The position numbers and the translations under genes are program-made. This document shows positions 1 through 9,000 of a stretch of 9,000 nucleotides of DNA, one piece after another. The stretch covers positions 1 to 9,000 of IMG/VR virus record IMGVR_UViG_2778261420_000011. One strand, given 5' to 3'. Within the stretch, counting starts at the first letter, position 1; every line of letters starts with the position of its first letter. This DNA is from a virus (taxonomy: Duplodnaviria; Heunggongvirae; Uroviricota; Caudoviricetes). A model generated the notes under the pieces. It was given only the letters and a program-made list of their open reading frames with translations. It was not told the origin of the DNA and did no database searches.

Positions 1-1082
1 CACTTAATCATATCCATCCAGGCAGATTCGGCAGTGACCCACACATTCATGTGTTTGGTAAAAAAATTCACCCGCGCAGAGACCTGCTCCTTCGCTTTTT
101 TCGCCAGACGACGCAGATCATCCCAGCGTTTACAGATGCCCAGGCCAGGATTCGCTTTCTGCCAGACCGTTTCATCAAACGGATCATCTCCCTCATCGAG
201 CGTGTAAATGATCGCAAAGTAGGAGTCGTCTTTTACCGCGCCCTCCACGTCGCTGTTATAGCCTCGCAATACCTTAATGGCGTAATCGCGCTGCTCGTAG
301 CAAATCCCTTCCTTGTTAAAGCCAGCCGTGGTGATGCCAAATAACAGAGACTGCAGACGGGCACCGGTTGCCGTTTCCAGAACGTCCCACACGTCACGGG
401 TTTTATGAGCATGCAGCTCATCAATAATGGCGCAGTGGATGTTCAGACCGTCCAGGTTGTTTGCATCCGAGGAAAGCGGTTCAAATTTTGATGCGCTCTG
501 CTCCTGGTAAATCGCCAGCTTGTTGAAATCAAACAACCGCCCGAGTGTCGACCGGGCTTTTCTGACCATATTTTTGGCGTCTTCAAACACAATTCTGGCC
601 TGGTCACGCGTGGTTGCGGCTGAATACACCTCAGCCCCGCCTTCACCATCTGCCCCCGTCATATACAGACCGATACCCGATGACAGGGTTGATTTTGCGT
701 TTTTACGGGCAACTTCGTTGTATGCTGTCCGGAACCGGCGCACCATCACCGGGCGTCCACTGCCATCGCTGCGCATGACAACTTCCCCGGTTTCTTCATT
801 CACCAGCGGAATGACAAAACCAAAAATATTAATGAGGATAAACACATGCCAGTCCATCAACTCAATGGGCTGACCTGCCAGCGCCCCTTTCACATGGGGT
901 ACAAATTTGTAGAAATTAAGGATGTGCTGTGCACGAGGTTCACTGAAATAAATCCCCCGCTCTTCGCCGTACTTCAGATCATCAAGAAAACGCTGGCAGG
1001 CCAGACGGACAAATTCGCCAGCAACAATTTCTCCTGCAACAACACGTTCGGCGTAGCGGATCCCGTCAGCCACTTTTGCCAT
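1..1082 (-). CDS. Phage terminase large subunit (TerL), 3'-truncated by the window edge
   Basis: Minus-strand frame checked codon by codon: open from ATG at 1082-1080 to position 3 (360 codons, no stop). Starts MAKVADGIRYAERVVAGEIVAGEFVRLACQRFLDDL and contains IHCAIIDELHAHKTRDVWDVLETATG, an acidic Walker-B-like motif typical of terminase ATPase domains. Start overlaps the terS stop (TGATG). Absent from the ORF track because it has no stop inside the window. Confidence 0.85.
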   Translation of the reverse strand, partial: MAKVADGIRYAERVVAGEIVAGEFVRLACQRFLDDLKYGEERGIYFSEPRAQHILNFYKFVPHVKGALAGQPIELMDWHVFILINIFGFVIPLVNEETGEVVMRSDGSGRPVMVRRFRTAYNEVARKNAKSTLSSGIGLYMTGADGEGGAEVYSAATTRDQARIVFEDAKNMVRKARSTLGRLFDFNKLAIYQEQSASKFEPLSSDANNLDGLNIHCAIIDELHAHKTRDVWDVLETATGARLQSLLFGITTAGFNKEGICYEQRDYAIKVLRGYNSDVEGAVKDDSYFAIIYTLDEGDDPFDETVWQKANPGLGICKRWDDLRRLAKKAKEQVSARVNFFTKHMNVWVTAESAWMDMIK

Positions 1083-1564
1083 CAGTCTCTCGCTTTTAAA
1101 AGCTCTGCCAGCGGATCAACATCATCCGGTCCGGCGGTATTTACTTTCGCCCGGCTTGCCGGTGACATACCAAACTCTGCAAGCATCGCCCGAATCCGCT
1201 TCCAGGCATCAGCCTTCATCGCAGCAGCCGGGTGTGCCTTGATCAGCACATCGCCATTCTGCGTTTCCGTGCGGTAGGTATAACCCTCAACATCGAGTAT
1301 TTCGCAGTGATGCCGGTATTCGGTGTAGGCTTCCACCAGTAACTCGAGCGCACGTGCATCGAGCTGAGAAATGATCCCTTCCGCATTCAGCTCTTCCGCC
1401 ATTCGCCTGAACCAGTACTTCCCCTGCGCCCCTAAATGTTGCGGAATTTTAGGGAGACCTTTTTCATCCTTTTTAGCGGTTTTTTTGGAGTCTTTAACTG
1501 GCCGCTTTGAGGGGTTACCTCGTATCAAATGCAGGCGTGGCGGGGTTTTCGGGGGTCCAGACAT
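1082..1564 (-). CDS. Phage terminase small subunit, P27 family
   Basis: 160 aa; N-terminus MSGPPKTPPRLHLIRGNPSKRP matches the conserved P27-family terminase small subunit signature as I recall it. ATG at 1564-1562; stop TGA 1084-1082 overlaps the terL start. Confidence 0.85.
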   Translation of the reverse strand: MSGPPKTPPRLHLIRGNPSKRPVKDSKKTAKKDEKGLPKIPQHLGAQGKYWFRRMAEELNAEGIISQLDARALELLVEAYTEYRHHCEILDVEGYTYRTETQNGDVLIKAHPAAAMKADAWKRIRAMLAEFGMSPASRAKVNTAGPDDVDPLAELLKARD

Positions 1565-1681
1565 AATCGGTTTTACCTATCAATCATTTAATCACATTCC
1601 AAAAAAAAGTTTTCGAACCTGCGGCGATGCGAGGAAAGGTCAGGCGGCGGTACTGAGCAGCCTGGGTTGCAGAGATTTGAT

Positions 1682-1696
1682 CCCCCCCCCTCCCCC
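1682..1696. repeat. Homopolymeric C9-T-C5 tract (G-run on the minus strand) in the terS upstream intergenic region
   Basis: Read directly: t-ccccccccc-t-ccccc at 1681-1696. Lies in the 230-bp non-coding gap upstream of terS, where a cos/packaging site is expected. Confidence 0.9.
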
Positions 1697-1794
1697 TTGA
1701 AGATGGCGGCAAAAAGCAGATACTGGCCACCCATCAGGATGCTCAGCATGGTGTATTCAGTTAATCTCAATAAATAAAAGATGGAGTCTAAGAA

Positions 1795-2310
1795 ATGGAT
1801 AAAACCAGAAAATATGACAGAGCCTTACAACTTGAAATCCTCAATGCCCTTATAGATTGCGCGCCTAACTCTTTAAACAAGGCACAGGAGCGAGACCTCA
1901 TTGAGAAGTTTGACAGTTACGATCACTTTGTGGCGTGCATGTTATACCTTGAAATGCATGGTCTCGTTTCCACCCCCTTCATACGCAGTGACACCATGGC
2001 TGGCGTTGAGTTTATCTTCTGTGCCCCTAACTGCTACATTACAGAAAAAGGAATTGATTTTCTTCTCGATGATGGCGGCTTAAGTGCGATCCTTAAAGTT
2101 CAGACCTTTCGGTTACACAGTGACACGATTGTTGCCCTTGAGGATATAATCCGTGTCGCAAATATATCTGAAGATCAGAAGAAGGGATTGATTTCAAAAC
2201 TCCGAGAGCTTCCGGGAGACGCCATAAAACATTTGACCCTACAGTTACTGACTCAGGGGGTTCTGAATCTGCCGAACGCACTTCGACTAATTCAAACAAC
2301 CCTCCAGTAG
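1795..2310 (+). CDS. Hypothetical protein, moron-like insertion; N-terminal region resembles a small winged-helix-like phage domain (possibly DUF2513-like)
   Basis: 171 aa ORF on the strand opposite all flanking late genes. GGAG Shine-Dalgarno at 1783-1786, 8 nt before ATG 1795. AT-rich (about 35% G+C in the first 60 nt by hand count) against GC-richer terminase flanks. Followed by a hairpin plus T-run at 2327-2364. Family assignment is from memory of motifs such as YLEMHGLV...ITEKGIDFL, not from a search. Confidence 0.55.
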   Translation: MDKTRKYDRALQLEILNALIDCAPNSLNKAQERDLIEKFDSYDHFVACMLYLEMHGLVSTPFIRSDTMAGVEFIFCAPNCYITEKGIDFLLDDGGLSAILKVQTFRLHSDTIVALEDIIRVANISEDQKKGLISKLRELPGDAIKHLTLQLLTQGVLNLPNALRLIQTTLQ

Positions 2311-2326
2311 GGCTAAACTCATCTGA

Positions 2327-2364
2327 GGGGCGAATTAACTCAAATTTGCCCCATCCCAGTTTTT
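2327..2364 (+). terminator. Candidate intrinsic terminator downstream of the 1795-2310 gene
   Basis: ggggcgaatt (2327-2336) pairs with aatttgcccc (2343-2352) with one G-U wobble, loop aactca; a T5 run follows at 2360-2364 but is separated from the stem by 7 nt, so it is a weak terminator. Confidence 0.3.
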
Positions 2365-2445
2365 CACTTAAAACAACCCAAAATCCCTCCCGGGTATCTG
2401 CATGAATATAGAAACTATTTTTATGCATTACAGCAGTGAATATTA

Positions 2446-2796
2446 TCATCGAATACGTTCCCTTGCTGTCTTCTCTCTGTGGCATTCCCTGCATAACGAC
2501 TCAAGATTGGAGTCATCATCGGTGCCGCCATGAGCTTTTGGAATCATGTGGTCTACAGTCCTGGCCTCAACGGCTCGTCCATTGCGCAGACAGTTCTTAC
2601 ACAGATGGTTATCACGCTTCAGTATACGCGCACGTATAACATCCCATTTCGAGCCATAGCCACGCTGGTGGCGACTCAGTCCGCGTTGATGCTGTACCCA
2701 TCCTTCACCACGATGTTTATCGCAGTAACCAGAACTGTCTGTGGTTGTACGTGCACATCCACGCTTACGGCAGGCGCGTGGGATTCGTGGGGGCAT
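2446..2796 (-). CDS. HNH endonuclease, terminase-associated (HK97 gp74-like)
   Basis: Cys/His-rich HNH core: CRKRGCARTTTDSSGYCDKH ... HLCKNCLRNGRAVEARTVDHMIPKAHGGTDDDSNLESLCRECH. Start placed at internal ATG 2796-2794 (MPPRIPRACRK), which has a GGAG 5 nt upstream; the track's longer start at 2895 has no ribosome-binding site. Confidence 0.8.
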   Translation of the reverse strand: MPPRIPRACRKRGCARTTTDSSGYCDKHRGEGWVQHQRGLSRHQRGYGSKWDVIRARILKRDNHLCKNCLRNGRAVEARTVDHMIPKAHGGTDDDSNLESLCRECHREKTARERIR

Positions 2797-2915
2797 ATGT
2801 ACTCCAATGAAGAAGCCACCGACATAGCCTCCTCCATTCGTCGTGAAACTATTTTCATCTACCCAGTAATGAACTCTTTGAAGAGTTGTAATCAATACAA
2901 CTCGCTAATGGAGAG

Positions 2916-2939
2916 GCTTGTCTCACACGTGAGACAAGC
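2916..2939. repeat. Perfect 11-bp inverted repeat with 2-nt centre (gcttgtctcac-ac-gtgagacaagc), followed on the plus strand by a T-rich stretch
   Basis: Read directly. Could be a protein-binding palindrome or a hairpin with a 4-nt loop and 10-bp stem. Located in the non-coding gap upstream of the HNH gene start. Confidence 0.6.
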
Positions 2940-3018
2940 TTCCTGTTTGATTTACTGGACACTATAGAAGGACAGAATGCCTTCATCACTCGAATAACAT
3001 CAATTAAGGAGGTTCAAC

Positions 3019-3141
3019 ATGTTTCATTTCACAAATCATCAGGCTGTAATTATGGCTGCATCAGCTTGTGCCACAGACCTTTTCCGCTTCACTTTGAGCC
3101 TGATTCATTTCTACCTGACCGGCTCGCCTCTATCTTTTTAA
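3019..3141 (+). CDS. Small hydrophobic ORF (40 aa), hypothetical
   Basis: Consensus Shine-Dalgarno AAGGAGG at 3006-3012, 6 nt before ATG 3019; translation MFHFTNHQAVIMAASACATDLFRFTLSLIHFYLTGSPLSF ends at TAA 3139-3141. Below the length cutoff of the ORF track. No homology known to me. Confidence 0.35.
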   Translation: MFHFTNHQAVIMAASACATDLFRFTLSLIHFYLTGSPLSF

Positions 3142-3321
3142 TCCCCGCTTTATCCAAATTGCATTGCCAGAATGCCGACAACAGACTGACATTCAAATCC
3201 TGACTACCTCCAATAGGCTGAGCATCCACCTATATAGTTTTAATTTTCATCAATCCATTTAACTATCGTTTAATTGTTGTCACATAGGATTCTGCCGTTT
3301 TTAACAATGCAGGATAATAAG

Positions 3322-3615
3322 ATGAAAAAAATGTTGTTTTCTGCCGCTCTGGCAATGCTTATTACAGGATGTGCTCAACAGACGTTTACTGTTGGAAACA
3401 AACCGACAGCAGTAACACCAAAGGAAACCATCACCCATCATTTCTTCGTTTCGGGAATTGGACAGGAGAAAACTGTTGATGCAGCCAAAATTTGTGGCGG
3501 CGCAGAAAATGTTGTTAAAACAGAAACCCAGCAAACATTCGTAAATGGATTTCTCGGTTTTATTACTTTAGGCATTTATACTCCACTGGAAGCGCGTGTG
3601 TATTGCTCACAATAA
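3322..3615 (+). CDS. bor: Bor lipoprotein (lambda Bor / Iss serum-resistance family)
   Basis: MKKMLFSAALAMLITGCAQQTFTVGNKPTAVTPKETITHHFFVSGIGQEKTVDAAKICGGAENVVKTETQQTFVNG...YTPLEARVYCSQ is near-identical to lambda Bor as I recall it; lipobox LITGC. Start set at ATG 3322 (AGGA at 3311-3314), not the track's upstream 3274. Confidence 0.9.
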   Translation: MKKMLFSAALAMLITGCAQQTFTVGNKPTAVTPKETITHHFFVSGIGQEKTVDAAKICGGAENVVKTETQQTFVNGFLGFITLGIYTPLEARVYCSQ

Positions 3616-3646
3616 TTGCATGAGTTGCCCATCGATATGGGCAGCT

Positions 3647-4108
3647 CTATCTGCACTGCTCATTAATATACTTCTGGGTTCCTTCCAGTTGTTTTTGCAT
3701 AGTGATCAGCCTCTCTCTGAGGGTGAAATAATCCCGTTCAGCGGTGTCTGCCAGTCGGGGGCTGGTTGCATTATCCACGCCGGAGGCGGTGGTGGCTTCA
3801 CGCACTGACTGACAGACTGCTTTGATGTGCAACCGACGACAACCAGCGGCAACATCAGCGCGCAGAGTTTCATTTTCAGCTTTCGCATTGGCTAATTCTC
3901 TCGAGTACTTTGCATCGAGTGCAGCAACATCACGCTGACGCTGCTGCATGTCAGCGATGGTGGCGATCGACTGCTTCAGCTCACTGACTTTTTTATCACG
4001 CTGTTCTTTGTAGGCGATGGCGTTATCACGGTAATGATTGACCGCCCACGACAGGCAGACGATGATGCAGATAACCAAAGCATAAATAATCGCGGCGACT
4101 CTGCTCAC
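3647..4108 (-). CDS. Rz spanin (inner-membrane subunit, i-spanin)
   Basis: Lambda-Rz-like sequence ([28 protein letters not shown] ... [13 protein letters not shown]). Start placed at GTG 4108-4106 to give a 153-aa product matching lambda Rz length; this GTG overlaps the endolysin stop TGA (4107-4105) and has a GGGGGAT SD upstream. The track's TTG start at 4123 is less likely. Confidence 0.88.
3706..3888 (-). CDS. Rz1 spanin (outer-membrane lipoprotein, o-spanin), embedded in Rz in the +1 frame
   Basis: 60 aa: [60 protein letters not shown], with lipobox VVVGC and a proline-rich core, near-identical to lambda Rz1 by recollection. Confidence 0.85.
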
Positions 4109-4638
4109 TGCTCTATCCCCCAACAGGCTAATGCGCTTTCCTGGTCACGACGAATAACCTGTCCATAGCAGTTATTTGAACGTATGCGGCAATCGCGCCC
4201 ACCATCTTTTATCCACCAGCGAATCGCCTCGCATGCGCCCTTACGATCACCGGCATTCAGCCGCTTATAAAACGTCGACGGGAAACACTTACCGGGGCCA
4301 ATGTTATAGGGACAGAATGACGCTATACCCGCTTTTTGTGGTTCGGTCAGTGGTACTTTAATATTGCGCTCCACCCATGCCAGCGCCTTATCACGCTCAA
4401 TGGCGTTGACCTGGTCGCATTTTTCCTTCGACAGTTTCATACCGGGAAAAACGGGTTTTCCATCCACCATCGTGGCACCCCGACAGATGGTCCAGATGCC
4501 GGACCCATCGCGGTATGCCGTTGTGTGGTTACCTTCTTTTTCATCCAGAAACTGGTCGAGAATATCAGGCGCGGGCGCACCGACGGCAATCAGTGCCAGA
4601 ACGGCAGCCGACAGGCCGTATCTGATTTTTGCGTTCAT
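4105..4638 (-). CDS. SAR endolysin (phage lysozyme, T4-lysozyme fold; RrrD/R21-like)
   Basis: 177 aa; N-terminal Gly/Ala-rich weakly hydrophobic segment [24 protein letters not shown] (signal-anchor-release type) followed by [22 protein letters not shown] lysozyme core. Closely resembles E. coli prophage lysozyme RrrD/RrrQ by recollection. Confidence 0.9.
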
Positions 4639-4701
4639 GGATATTTATCAGGATTTATCGGTTTCTGCCCACGGACAGGTTTATCTGTTCCGGTCAGTGA
4701 C

Positions 4702-5052
4702 TTAAGGTTGTGATTCCGGAGGAGTCTTCAGAGAACCAGTAATTCTTCCCGGTAGCTTTCCTTTGTAGGTTATCCATACATTCTGCGCCTCTAAAATTAC
4801 GGGGCGCTTTTCCGGCGACTGCTCATCCCCTTCACATAACCCGGCAGCAACATCCAGGAAGACCTGTCTGATGCTCCTTCTGGCTGCTGCCTCATAAAAC
4901 TCCAGCGCGGCACCTTCAACACGGTCCAGCGAGATGTCCAGGTCAAAAATTTCACCGTCAAAGCGTTTTTTGTCCCGTAACGCTAAAGTTACCGTAACTT
5001 TATTCTCAAAATTGCGGATCCCTTTCACAATCAGTTCATAGTTTTGAGTCAT
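4702..5052 (-). CDS. Hypothetical protein inserted between holin and endolysin (YdfR position of Qin prophage; possibly DUF1327)
   Basis: 116 aa ORF with ATG at 5052-5050 and a GGGGAGAG SD; stop is 63 bp upstream of the endolysin start. The family name is inferred from synteny with Qin (essQ-ydfR-rrrQ), not from recognised sequence. Confidence 0.65.
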   Translation of the reverse strand: MTQNYELIVKGIRNFENKVTVTLALRDKKRFDGEIFDLDISLDRVEGAALEFYEAAARRSIRQVFLDVAAGLCEGDEQSPEKRPVILEAQNVWITYKGKLPGRITGSLKTPPESQP

Positions 5053-5056
5053 TGAA

Positions 5057-5272
5057 TTACTCTCCCCGTGCAGCCTTACGCTTGTCTTCTCTGATTTTGA
5101 AGTACAGATTTGTCAGATAAGTCAGGAAGCCCAGAACCAGACTCCCCAGCACACCAATCGCAGCCCACTGTGACGGACTGACCTGATCAAGCCACTGTAA
5201 AAACCAGTAGCCAGCACTGCCTGCGGAGGTGCCATAGGCAATGCCCGTTGAAATTTTGTCCATGGATTTCAT
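5057..5272 (-). CDS. Class II holin, S21-type pinholin (EssD/EssQ-like) with dual-start motif
   Basis: 71 aa: [71 protein letters not shown]; the Met1-Lys-Ser-Met4 dual start gives antiholin/holin forms as in phage 21 S. GGAGGTGAGG SD upstream. Confidence 0.9.
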
Positions 5273-5564: not shown

Positions 5565-5639
<75 letters not shown>

Positions 5640-5642
5640 ATA

Positions 5643-5718
<76 letters not shown>

Positions 5719-5720
5719 AC

Positions 5721-5797
5721 TGGACCGCCACCGGGGACTCGAACCTCGCACACTCAACTTAAAGGGTTGACGCTCTTTCCTGATGAACTGGTGACGG
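5721..5797 (-). tRNA. tRNA, anticodon UUU (Lys-like), non-canonical; possibly a pseudo-tRNA
   Basis: Reverse complement CCGTCACCAGTTCATCAGGAAAGAGCGTCAACCCTTTAAGTTGAGTGTGCGAGGTTCGAGTCCCCGGTGGCGGTCCA folds as a cloverleaf (acceptor with one G-U, D arm GTTC/GAGC, anticodon stem TCAAC/GTTGA, T loop TTCGAGT), but has C at position 33, A at position 8 and an A-C mismatch in the T stem. Confidence 0.5.
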
Positions 5798-5798
5798 T

Positions 5799-5874
5799 TG
5801 GTGGCCCTTGCTGGATTTGAACCAGCGACCTGGCGATTATGAGTCGCTCGCTCTCACCACTGAGCTAAAGGGCC
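5799..5874 (-). tRNA. tRNA with CAU anticodon, ileX/ileZ-like (tRNA-Ile2, lysidine type) rather than elongator Met
   Basis: Reverse complement GGCCCTTTAGCTCAGTGGTGAGAGCGAGCGACTCATAATCGCCAGGTCGCTGGTTCAAATCCAGCAAGGGCCACCA: perfect acceptor stem, anticodon loop CUCAUAA, encoded CCA. Resembles E. coli ileX by recollection; the Ile2 versus Met call cannot be made from sequence alone. Confidence 0.75.
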
Positions 5875-6084: not shown

Positions 6085-6774
6085 TCAATCTACTTTTGCA
6101 ACACTTTGCTTTGAAAATGCCGCCTTTTGTTTTGAACGTGTTCTCATTACAAACAATAAAGCCTCACTATCCAGTCGGTGAAAAATGTGTTTCATTGCAA
6201 CCCAGTGACGAGTAAATGTTTTGGACCAGTTTTTAGTTGTCACTCCCGCCAGTAATGCCAGCTCCTGGTATTCATAACCTTCCCCACCAAAAAGTTCTGC
6301 TTTTACTGCCTGCGCCGCCAGCCAGATTAATTTTTTCAGGCGTTCCTGCGTTTTCCCTGCAATTTTTCTGGTACCGGATTGAGTATTAAATTCATTCCAC
6401 GCCCACTGTGTTATCGCGATCTGATATTCCCAACAAATACTCCCGCTGTAACTCCACAACAACCAGGCTTTATGATGTTCTTCAAGAGACAGAACAGCCC
6501 GCCGCCACGATGATGTCGAAAACTCAACCGGACTGACCAGAGGAATTGACGTCCCCTTCGCCAGCGATTGTTTCCCCGGGATTGGTGGATTATCCCGCGT
6601 AATCATTTTTCCGGTCACTTCATCTCGGTACCGGATTTTTTTACGCCTGTAACGCCCTGTATCGAACATGGCATTCTCCTGCCAGGCTTCAAGCTGACCT
6701 TTTGTTGCCCCACTCAAATCAGCGGTGGCGATAATGAGCTGCTCACGCACAAACTGTAAATACTGGTTATTCAT
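6085..6774 (-). CDS. Putative late-gene antiterminator (Q-like by position; QuuQ-like), family not confirmed
   Basis: 229 aa from ATG 6774-6772, which abuts the rusA stop (ATGA overlap at 6771-6774). Sits immediately upstream of a terminator, the tRNAs and the lysis cassette, which is the canonical Q position. No Zn-finger or other motif I can recognise, so function is positional inference. Confidence 0.5.
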   Translation of the reverse strand: MNNQYLQFVREQLIIATADLSGATKGQLEAWQENAMFDTGRYRRKKIRYRDEVTGKMITRDNPPIPGKQSLAKGTSIPLVSPVEFSTSSWRRAVLSLEEHHKAWLLWSYSGSICWEYQIAITQWAWNEFNTQSGTRKIAGKTQERLKKLIWLAAQAVKAELFGGEGYEYQELALLAGVTTKNWSKTFTRHWVAMKHIFHRLDSEALLFVMRTRSKQKAAFSKQSVAKVD

Positions 6775-7130
6775 GCGCACTCCAGTTCTGTGATTTTTAT
6801 CCCCAGCCGCCCACCAGGAACGAGCTGACCGCGCACAATATTGATTTCATCAAACTGCTCGTCGTCTATAAGTAGTCCGGCATGCGTCAGCGCATCCAGT
6901 GGTGCCTTCAGGATATTGTCCAGGTCGCGGCGGCGCTTATCCGGTGGCTCTGCAATAATCTTTATCGCCAGCCTTCCGGACAGGTTTAATTTCAGCCGCT
7001 GCTGGCGAACAATAAGCGCCACAGCCCGGCGATAACGCTTTCCCTCCTCCGAGATAAAATATGTGCTGCCACGGCGTCGCCAGTAAGTATTCACCGTCGG
7101 TGGGTAAGGTAAAACCAAATCTATGGGCAT
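6771..7130 (-). CDS. rusA: Crossover junction endodeoxyribonuclease RusA (Holliday junction resolvase)
   Basis: 119 aa: MPIDLVLPYPPTVNTYWRRRG ... PDKRRRDLDNILKAPLDALTHAGLLIDDEQ ... GGRLGIKITELE shows the conserved RusA blocks including the acidic catalytic region DLDN...DAL...DD. ATG at 7130 with GAGGTG SD. Confidence 0.9.
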   Translation of the reverse strand: MPIDLVLPYPPTVNTYWRRRGSTYFISEEGKRYRRAVALIVRQQRLKLNLSGRLAIKIIAEPPDKRRRDLDNILKAPLDALTHAGLLIDDEQFDEINIVRGQLVPGGRLGIKITELECA

Positions 7131-8639: not shown

Positions 8640-8795
8640 TTACTCCTCAGGTTCGTAAGCTGTGAAGACAGCGACCTCCGTCTGGCCGGTTCGGATTCGT
8701 ACCTCGCAGAGGTCTTTCCTCGTTACCAGTGCCGTCACTATGACGGTTAAACAGATGACGATCAGGGCGATTAACATCGCCTTTTGCTGCTTCAT
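8640..8795 (-). CDS. hokD: Hok/Gef-family type I toxin (HokD/RelF-like), 51 aa
   Basis: MKQQKAMLIALIVICLTVIVTALVTRKDLCEVRIRTGQTEVAVFTAYEPEE matches E. coli HokD as I recall it. AAGGAG SD 9 nt upstream of ATG 8795. The track's 70-aa version (start 8852) is an in-frame upstream extension. Confidence 0.85.
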   Translation of the reverse strand: MKQQKAMLIALIVICLTVIVTALVTRKDLCEVRIRTGQTEVAVFTAYEPEE

Positions 8796-9000
8796 AGCCT
8801 GCTTCTCCTTGCCTTTCGGCACGTAAGAGGCTAACCTAGATTTGCCGTTCATAGATTGAGCCTCAGATTAATGTTAAGCGTCTTGCAGGACGCGTAATGT
8901 TAACTGGGGCTTTTCTCTATCTGCCTTTGGTGTTCATGCCTGAGACAGATAGCCTCAAGCACCCGCAGTAATTTTACATAAAGGTTATGGTTCCTTTCAA

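Follow-up and report, generated by a model that had tools for sequence, protein, structure and literature searches.

Evidence for two convergent, overlapping genes on opposite strands of a mobile prophage cassette, possibly a defence gene and its inhibitor

Introduction

Why should a gene of low guanine-plus-cytosine (G+C) content lie between the HNH endonuclease gene and the terminase small subunit gene (terS) of a prophage, on the strand opposite to all of its lytic genes? This question is raised by the first 9,000 nucleotides (nt) of the virus record IMGVR_UViG_2778261420_000011 in IMG/VR (the whole stretch is hereafter called the window), which represent the late region of an HK97/lambdoid-type Escherichia coli prophage with its lytic genes all on the minus strand. 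An earlier note on this DNA had described a single opposite-strand gene here, with an antisense frame at 2093-2494 as the alternative to it. The present analysis points instead to two genes that run towards each other and share coding DNA at their 3' ends, gene A on the plus strand and gene B on the minus strand, and shows that they form a mobile cassette. What such a pair may do for the prophage is then considered against four rival explanations. The features needed for the argument are as follows.

1782-1785, plus strand: Shine-Dalgarno sequence of gene A (GGAG), 9 nt before the ATG as read from the sequence
1795-2310, plus strand: gene A, ATG start, 171 amino acids (aa), antisense to the late operon, identical to WP_000361881.1
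2093-2449, minus strand: gene B, 118 aa, in the direction of the late operon, with a conserved core at about residues 1-95
2093-2310, both strands: A/B overlap, 218 nt of antiparallel coding, with a conserved core at about 2155-2310
2446-2449, minus strand: ATGA junction, in which the HNH stop TGA overlaps the B start ATG in the sequence (start fixed by alignment of homologues)

Two genes in place of one

The plus-strand gene with its own Shine-Dalgarno sequence was found as the earlier note had described it. Its product is labelled "hypothetical protein" in RefSeq and matches, along its full length, PHROG 3983, a family of unassigned function (E = 1e-56, residues 5-171 versus positions 2-164 of the 165-position profile). 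Homologues of steady length (160-175 aa) number 194, down to about 45% identity, and an exhaustive profile search extends the family to 1028 clusters at 50% identity. Third codon positions take most of the substitutions (e.g., 26/22/70 and 50/31/95), and by these sequence comparisons gene A is a real gene under purifying selection.

Gene B was found by reading the DNA downstream of A homologues, where a conserved minus-strand open reading frame (ORF) is present. In the window it begins at the ATG at 2449-2447, crosses a 136-nt "intergenic" stretch, enters gene A in antisense and reaches its stop at 2093-2095. The frame at 2093-2494 consists of this ORF and a spurious N-terminal extension, the real ATG being at 2449; setting it against the plus-strand gene was therefore a false dichotomy, since both are conserved genes. 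Homologues of B open with M-K/I-I-F/Y-T-A and carry the motif DFW..LS..LGWGKF.LIRP, and nearly all of 16 loci have a Shine-Dalgarno sequence ahead of the conserved ATG. The ATGA junction with HNH is a layout typical of translational coupling, which may thus link B to the late operon.

The part of B that lies outside A also behaves as coding sequence. Its 39-47 codons are kept at the protein level where the DNA alignment is lost, and differences there fall as 2442/1756/3706 at codon positions 1/2/3, an excess at the third position. In the AlphaFold2 model, residues 1-70 form a five-stranded β-barrel (predicted local distance difference test score, pLDDT, 81-91) that spans the boundary of the overlap, and residues 100-118 are disordered and unconserved. 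The barrel had no structural match, nor did B match any Pfam or PHROG family. A hidden Markov model (HMM) of B matches an unannotated ORF in Edwardsiella phage GF-2 (E = 1e-41) and, more weakly, sequences of Pseudomonas phage YMC11/07/P54 and Acinetobacter phage AbIPP1, the non-overlapping part included. The gene is rarely called (17 database clusters, all "hypothetical") and is omitted by the Prokaryotic Genome Annotation Pipeline (PGAP), the overlap being the reason why standard gene callers leave it out.

The antiparallel coding overlap

If only A were translated, an antisense frame should stay open in it no further than its codon usage allows. In all of the 16 loci the antisense frame occupies the same relative frame and is open 41-75 codons into A, versus 7-18 codons on average in synonymous-codon shuffles of A (P <= 0.045 in 16/16 loci and <= 0.005 in 12/16). 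Gene A itself uses the rare ATA-AAA for Ile-Lys, so avoiding an antisense stop in its sequence. The fraction of identical A residues that also keep the same codon is 0.705 in residues 129-171 versus 0.38-0.42 in residues 1-128, and the step in synonymous constraint at about residue 121 coincides with the beginning of the conserved core of B. Seen from the other strand, third positions of B are the least variable within the overlap (1802/1814/1208), and its same-codon fraction is 0.83 in the overlap core versus 0.40 in the free part. Residues of about 121-171 of A, within its C-terminal domain of four helices, and residues of about 47-95 of B, its C-terminal half, are encoded by complementary codons. 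Taken together, these results make it very probable that two real protein-coding genes overlap here on opposite strands, and the overlap is, as judged from codon-level comparison, under selection.

A different explanation of the same constraint would be that A alone is functional and B is untranslated, its conservation resulting from an element that acts at the RNA level (an antisense RNA target, for instance, or a terminator in the 3' end of A). RNA structure can likewise cause synonymous constraint, and the few calls of B (17 clusters versus 194 or more for A) and its omission by PGAP fit such an element. The protein-level conservation and third-position excess of the B codons outside A, the conserved ATG with its Shine-Dalgarno sequence, the frame that is open beyond shuffles in every one of the 16 loci, and the modelled barrel that spans the overlap boundary are not what an untranslated element would leave, and the sole hairpin examined (2327-2352, just outside the overlap) lacks covariation. 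This explanation is accordingly considered very improbable.

Mobility and distribution of the cassette

The earlier note had proposed a horizontally acquired moron of lower G+C content in a gap of about 880 bp, and had suggested a comparison of the region across relatives. These points are borne out. Between the terS start (1564) and the HNH stop (2446) lie 881 bp; G+C content is 0.429 at 1696-2445 versus 0.534 in terS and 0.527 in HNH. The comparison revealed a presence/absence polymorphism, with the following segment on the side of the window.

1696-2516, no strand: mosaic segment of 821 bp, replacing 89 bp of an insert-less relative and taking in the last 71 nt of HNH

The insert-less relative is vB_EcoS-640R1 (locus L002), to which positions 1-1695 and 2517-5212 of the window align in blastn and 1696-2516 do not, placing a junction at 1695/1696. 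The segment was detected in only 28 of the 5426 complete E. coli genomes, and in a single one of 50,697 phage records. The stretch 1700-2445 is identical in several E. coli chromosomes, and the gap (1565-2445) has 99.8% identity to phage PhiR49_2 of E. coli ECOR13. Together with the homologues at different sites, these observations support the view that the segment is a mobile, horizontally acquired moron. In addition, a 96%-identical cassette was observed in E. coli 2014C-3075 (locus L023, 6509-6746), within a degraded prophage with stx1d whose stxB1d lies about 2.9 kb away, which implies that the cassette travels on Shiga-toxin phages too.

The sites occupied by homologues are diverse: between Q and holin genes in Salmonella and Klebsiella, between Rha and lysis-side genes in E. 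marmotae, between the tape measure and tail protein M genes in Proteus, within tail genes in Serratia, and on the other side of HNH in E. coli GDSC2BY4G. The A-B pair was found at differing prophage sites in Salmonella, E. marmotae, Proteus, Serratia, Erwinia, Yersinia, Morganella and others, as well as in Edwardsiella phage GF-2. It is present in every examined relative of about 40% identity or more, mostly intact, with visible decay in four lineages, and its reach extends from Enterobacterales to Pseudomonas and Acinetobacter phages, where the traces are weaker but full-length. A distant subfamily of A with a different C-terminus (loci L036 and L038-L042) has no B. In the lambdoid/siphovirus-type prophages that were read via gene calls, gene A is opposite in strand to the flanking lytic genes, and in a crude ORF survey of 29 loci most agree that A runs opposite to, and B along with, the neighbouring genes. 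Gene B is co-oriented with its neighbours and closely packed behind the upstream lytic gene in the prophage loci read: it shares the ATGA with HNH in the window, follows the preceding gene at a distance of 2 nt in Serratia and the tape measure gene at 15 nt in Proteus, and lies directly 3' of a terminator hairpin downstream of Q in Salmonella.

This distribution bears on the possibility that B is an ordinary late packaging or virion-accessory protein, onto whose 3' end an unrelated moron, A, happened to land. The window gives such an idea some footing, as B would be translationally coupled to HNH there and adjoins the presumed cos region and terS. Against it, the same pair with the same overlap frame recurs at Q-holin sites, among tail genes, in an immI-like region and in early/immunity regions of Pseudomonas and Acinetobacter phages; no fetched locus has a B-like ORF apart from an A-family gene or its remnant; and related HK97-like phages package without B. 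An ordinary late protein is hence hardly to be expected.

Winged-helix domain and upstream motif of gene A

A winged-helix-like N-terminal half followed by additional C-terminal residues had been predicted for the A protein, and the structure model agrees: residues 1-90 form a winged helix (pLDDT >90) of the YjcQ/DUF2513/PadR-like kind, after which about 75 helical residues make up a highly conserved four-helix domain (residues 95-171). The fold is that of Pfam families YjcQ (PF09639; PDB 2HGC) and DUF2513 (PF10711), winged-helix proteins of prophages to which A adds the conserved four-helix domain. The protein of the window itself is below the Pfam threshold for YjcQ (E = 0.18, 12.5 bits versus a cut-off of 23.3 bits) and has no DUF2513 match; among 75 distant relatives in the family, matches (E < 0.01) are to DUF2513 in 11 and to YjcQ in 5. 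Neither family has an assigned function, and the likeness does not explain the role of A. A search of the literature on YjcQ, DUF2513 and antiparallel overlapping genes in combination with prophage found nothing relevant, and no solved structure spanned both domains of A. The invariant polar residues R9, Q12, Y51, T83, D88, D93 and H108, together with a GIDFLxDDGGL loop, appear from the alignment to mark a conserved functional surface. An apparent likeness to Staphylococcus aureus Protein A in a PDB profile search (E = 2.3e-10) was rejected as spurious, the score being inflated by five repeats; the individual domains score 7.5-10 bits each with independent E-values of 7-28, and the match is gone with a broader profile (A5).

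Upstream of A, a conserved motif was detected, of which the window carries a poor copy.

1723-1740, plus strand: degenerate copy, CTGGCCACCCATCAGGAT, of the motif CTGATCAnnTnTCAGGAT, with 3 mismatches and not significant alone

A TCAGGAT-type motif occurs in 9 of 16 loci, and CTGATCAnnTnTCAGGAT lies about 61-67 nt upstream of the A start in most loci that carry it (3894-3908 in L012, 3929-3943 in L024, 3922-3936 in L028, 3925-3939 in L037 and 3920-3934 in L043). It holds a GATC (Dam) site and a CTGA-N7-TCAG inverted repeat, is found in five or more distant lineages, and its exact core occurs only upstream of A across 46 fetched loci (about 350 kb). It may be an operator or a part of a promoter.

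These features underlie the main rival to a defence function, namely that A is a regulator of the PadR/MarR type, an auxiliary repressor of prophage or host promoters, with B as a lytic-phase anti-repressor. Autoregulation via CTGA-N7-TCAG would be possible, and the cassette would tune lysogeny and induction without any attack on other phages. PadR and MarR regulators have, like A, a winged-helix topology followed by a helical region, although no significant sequence match exists, and the helix-3 motif LYLExHGL of A resembles PadR recognition helices. The partly palindromic motif found exclusively upstream of A also suits a regulator, as does the placement of A in immunity regions, seen in three phages, where it follows cI, follows an Mnt-like gene, or lies between cro and cII. 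On the other hand, the winged-helix domain of A is acidic (isoelectric point 4.7, net charge -6) and the putative recognition helix (the third helix), YDHFVACMLYLEM, contains no basic residue; the motif is missing in 7 of 16 loci and degenerate in the window; and the cassettes of Enterobacterales occupy arbitrary sites in late operons, far from immunity regions. A regulator with its anti-repressor is therefore thought rather unlikely, and it would in any case be compatible with a defence role.

Possible function in defence and self-immunity

It is possible, and is here tentatively preferred without being held probable, that A and B form a defence and self-immunity pair that works like the "noncontiguous operon" of Tai/Ati or like Tha/Ith but is built from unrelated proteins, a reading indirectly backed by gene positions in other phages and by published systems of similar build. 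In the lysogen, A would be made from its own transcription unit and provide an accessory function, most likely interference with superinfecting phages. Upon induction, head-on late transcription across A would lower the amount of A and concurrently yield B, which might neutralise A as a lytic-phase antagonist and so spare the phage's own lytic cycle. The coding overlap would make A and B genetically inseparable, which would explain why they always move together.

Gene positions agree with the two halves of this scheme. In Acinetobacter phage AbIPP1, gene A is directly downstream of cI on the same strand, which is the position of rexAB and bstA, and in GF-2 there is an overlap between A and the stop of an Arc-like regulator gene; the latter sits in the Mnt position, corresponding to the mnt position of P22 immI, and diverges from arc-ant. 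Expression of A in lysogeny is thus indirectly indicated by these two arrangements. Transcription of B during the lytic phase may be inferred from its co-orientation with, and close packing behind, lytic genes. Lysogen transcriptomes have highlighted genes antisense to lytic genes as candidate accessory loci, with STMMW_20121 and STMMW_26411 as lysogeny-expressed genes (PMC7067206).

A more far-reaching version, in which the cassette represents a new and widespread prophage immunity module whose defence protein and own inhibitor are encoded on opposite strands of the same DNA, is doubtful. If it were true, the overlap would be more than a regulatory device for mutually exclusive transcription, as defence and self-immunity would be inseparable and forced to co-evolve.

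The strict linkage of A and B would also be expected of an addiction or abortive-infection pair, in which B would be a small toxic protein produced solely upon lytic transcription across the cassette and A would serve as antidote or regulator (or the reverse), so that the prophage is stabilised or infected cells are killed. In type I toxin-antitoxin systems, transcripts of toxin and antidote overlap on opposite strands. The authors of the Tab study liken defence and counter-defence pairs to addiction modules (PMC10884400). B, however, has no membrane-spanning or strongly hydrophobic segment (maximum Kyte-Doolittle mean over 19 residues, 0.88) and matches no known toxin fold; both proteins are acidic and soluble-looking, and the combination of a broken A with an intact B in loci L026 and L035 is unexpected if B is toxic. 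Such a pair is considered quite unlikely. A membrane or exclusion protein was rejected as a candidate, as neither A nor B has a hydrophobic segment.

Comparison with known systems

A close parallel to the preferred defence and self-immunity reading is found in phi80. There, TaiEcA (orf63) runs antisense within the Q operon and is expressed by the lysogen, and it is neutralised by the small AtiEcA (orf64), a product of the late operon; once ati is lost, selection favours the loss of tai (He et al. 2024, PMC11364771). The Tai/Ati pair has been described as a noncontiguous operon, through which immunity is tied to the life cycle of the phage (PMC11364771). The likeness consists in a moron placed close to the packaging genes of a lambdoid phage, with one gene antisense to a Q-dependent late operon, a small partner within that operon, and frames that overlap on opposite strands; here, the arrangement of antisense gene and late-operon partner is seen in the orientation of the two genes and the ATGA coupling. 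The claim is that A/B works like Tai/Ati, not that it belongs to the same family.

In phage 80alpha of S. aureus, the transcription units of Tha and Ith overlap in antisense (Rostol et al. 2024, PMC11087260). As proposed for A and B, a prophage defence gene and its protein inhibitor lie there on opposite strands with overlapping transcripts. Tha, however, is an HEPN RNase whose gene belongs to the cI operon, and Ith is transcribed constitutively from a promoter of its own, whereas no HEPN or other catalytic domain was detected in A or B, and the presumed inhibitor B rides on the lytic operon. Tab/anti-Tab (PMC10884400) and TerI/anti-TerI follow the same logic of defence plus self-immunity. As candidates for identity with the pair, Tab (83 aa, encoded between terS and terL), GiPD474 (an ATPase) and TerI of Listeria were rejected, none of them corresponding to A/B.

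With classical lambdoid morons, such as bor in the window and HK97 gp15, the cassette shares low G+C content, presence/absence, opposite orientation in the late region and its own ribosome-binding site; unlike them, it consists of a pair of genes whose coding sequences overlap antiparallel over a long stretch, one member of the pair belonging to the late operon, and no promoter was found.

Several observations weigh against a defence and self-immunity pair. Identity with Tai/Ati was rejected, hhalign giving probabilities of 0.1% for A versus TaiEcA and 0.8% for B versus AtiEcA, and tblastn of A did not find phi80. The geometry is also different, as Tai/Ati are divergent with a 5' overlap of 20 nt, whereas A/B are convergent with a conserved 3' coding overlap of 128-230 nt; moreover, ati is downstream of tai in the late operon, whereas B is upstream of A. 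Neither PADLOC (PADLOC-DB 2.0, E up to 1) nor NCBIfam returned a match for A or B. No consensus sigma-70 promoter for A was found in a strict scan of 1500-3000, and a relaxed scan of 17 loci gave nothing consistent in position, so that the "own transcription unit" of A is inferred from orientation only. The hairpin downstream of A is not conserved and lacks covariation (53.8% of cells paired versus 52.5% in shuffles), nor did RNAalifold yield a consensus structure at homologous loci. B is frameshifted in Klebsiella, and A is truncated with B intact in L026 and L035, implying that neither gene is indispensable to the prophage. B of AbIPP1 does not obviously continue a lytic operon. Finally, the winged helix of A could equally mean a plain transcription factor.

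The Klebsiella frameshift is located inside the GWG motif and is the same in three independent assemblies (L016-L018; about 4335-4759 in L016), with A intact; it may represent either a decayed partner or a programmed frameshift. In tblastn of A against the phage collection, no Salmonella phage record was returned, and thus no A homologue was apparent among the Salmonella phages in it.

Significance

Long antisense overlaps of two real protein-coding genes in prokaryotes are still disputed. The A/B pair offers clean comparative evidence across several gammaproteobacterial orders, comprising frame retention, synonymous constraint confined to the overlap, and a structure model that spans its boundary, and if the immunity-module reading is true, it would be among the best comparative cases of a long functional antiparallel coding overlap in bacteria or phages. 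It also places an essentially unannotated gene, B, beside a "hypothetical protein" family of about 1000 clusters at 50% identity.

A recent principle holds that prophage defences against conserved phage functions need a linked self-immunity factor in the lytic phase, as exemplified by Tai/Ati, Tha/Ith, Tab/anti-Tab, TerI/anti-TerI and BstA/aba. Should it hold for A/B, the list would grow by a protein pair unrelated to those known, in a genetic arrangement that is new and more intimate. The search rule for further systems would be an antisense gene in a lytic operon together with an overlapping, co-oriented small ORF. An inducible phage with the exact cassette, PhiR49_2 of E. coli ECOR13, is available in GenBank, and both genes are small.

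Hairpins around the cassette

Beyond the 3' end of A, the following structure was located.

2327-2364, plus strand: hairpin with a 10-bp stem (2327-2336/2343-2352) and a T-run (2360-2364)

The region 2300-2400 folds at -24.9 kcal/mol (z = -2.6). The T-run to 2364 explains why the earlier note had extended its element to that position. The downstream hairpin of that note is indeed present in the window; as a feature of the family it does not stand, since only about half of the homologous loci have one. The bases of the hairpin also encode, on the other strand, GWGKFELIRP, the most conserved motif of B, and in some lineages this stretch may thus have a double use.

On the other side of the cassette, loci L012, L021 and L024 share CTCCAATAAAAAA next to a G+C-rich hairpin, approximately 100-130 nt upstream of A, and CTCCAATAAAAAA plus hairpin has the look of an intrinsic terminator on the minus strand, situated immediately past the cassette. 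The window does not contain CTCCAATAAAAAA because the mosaic junction at 1696 shortens its cassette.

Neighbouring genes of the window

The remainder of the window is arranged as follows, with the minus-strand genes given from high to low coordinates.

8640-8852, minus strand: Hok, followed by DUF968 and RusA
6085-6780, minus strand: Q antiterminator
5565-5874, minus strand: four tRNA genes, followed by holin, DUF1327, lysozyme and Rz
3319-3615, plus strand: bor lipoprotein gene (PF06291, E = 3.8e-30), between Rz and HNH
2446-2796, minus strand: HNH endonuclease (PF01844, E = 1.5e-15; PGAP start), the late gene upstream of the cassette
1565-1695, no strand: terS-proximal segment of 131 bp
1082-1564, minus strand: terS, P27 family (PF05119, E = 1.7e-25; so annotated by PGAP in the identical region), the late gene on the downstream side of the cassette with respect to late transcription, followed by terL

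The terS-proximal segment has 94-99% identity to eight insert-less phages that share nothing further of the gap, and is presumably a candidate cos region. Within it, PGAP annotates a hypothetical minus-strand ORF of about 54 aa (WP_154675861.1, 1584-1750), which overlaps a C-rich run at 1682-1695; a 60-aa version had no PHROG match, and the ORF is probably not a gene.

The bor gene is a second antisense moron of the window. Its site is also polymorphic, as the interval 2798-3665 is replaced in PhiR49_2 and E. coli 1EC213, where no bor is annotated. Similarly, the four tRNA genes between Q and holin (Gly-tcc, Thr-tgt, Lys-ttt and Met-cat) occupy a site at which related prophages carry different sets, with Arg, Arg and Met in PhiR49_2 and Arg and Ile in 1EC213.

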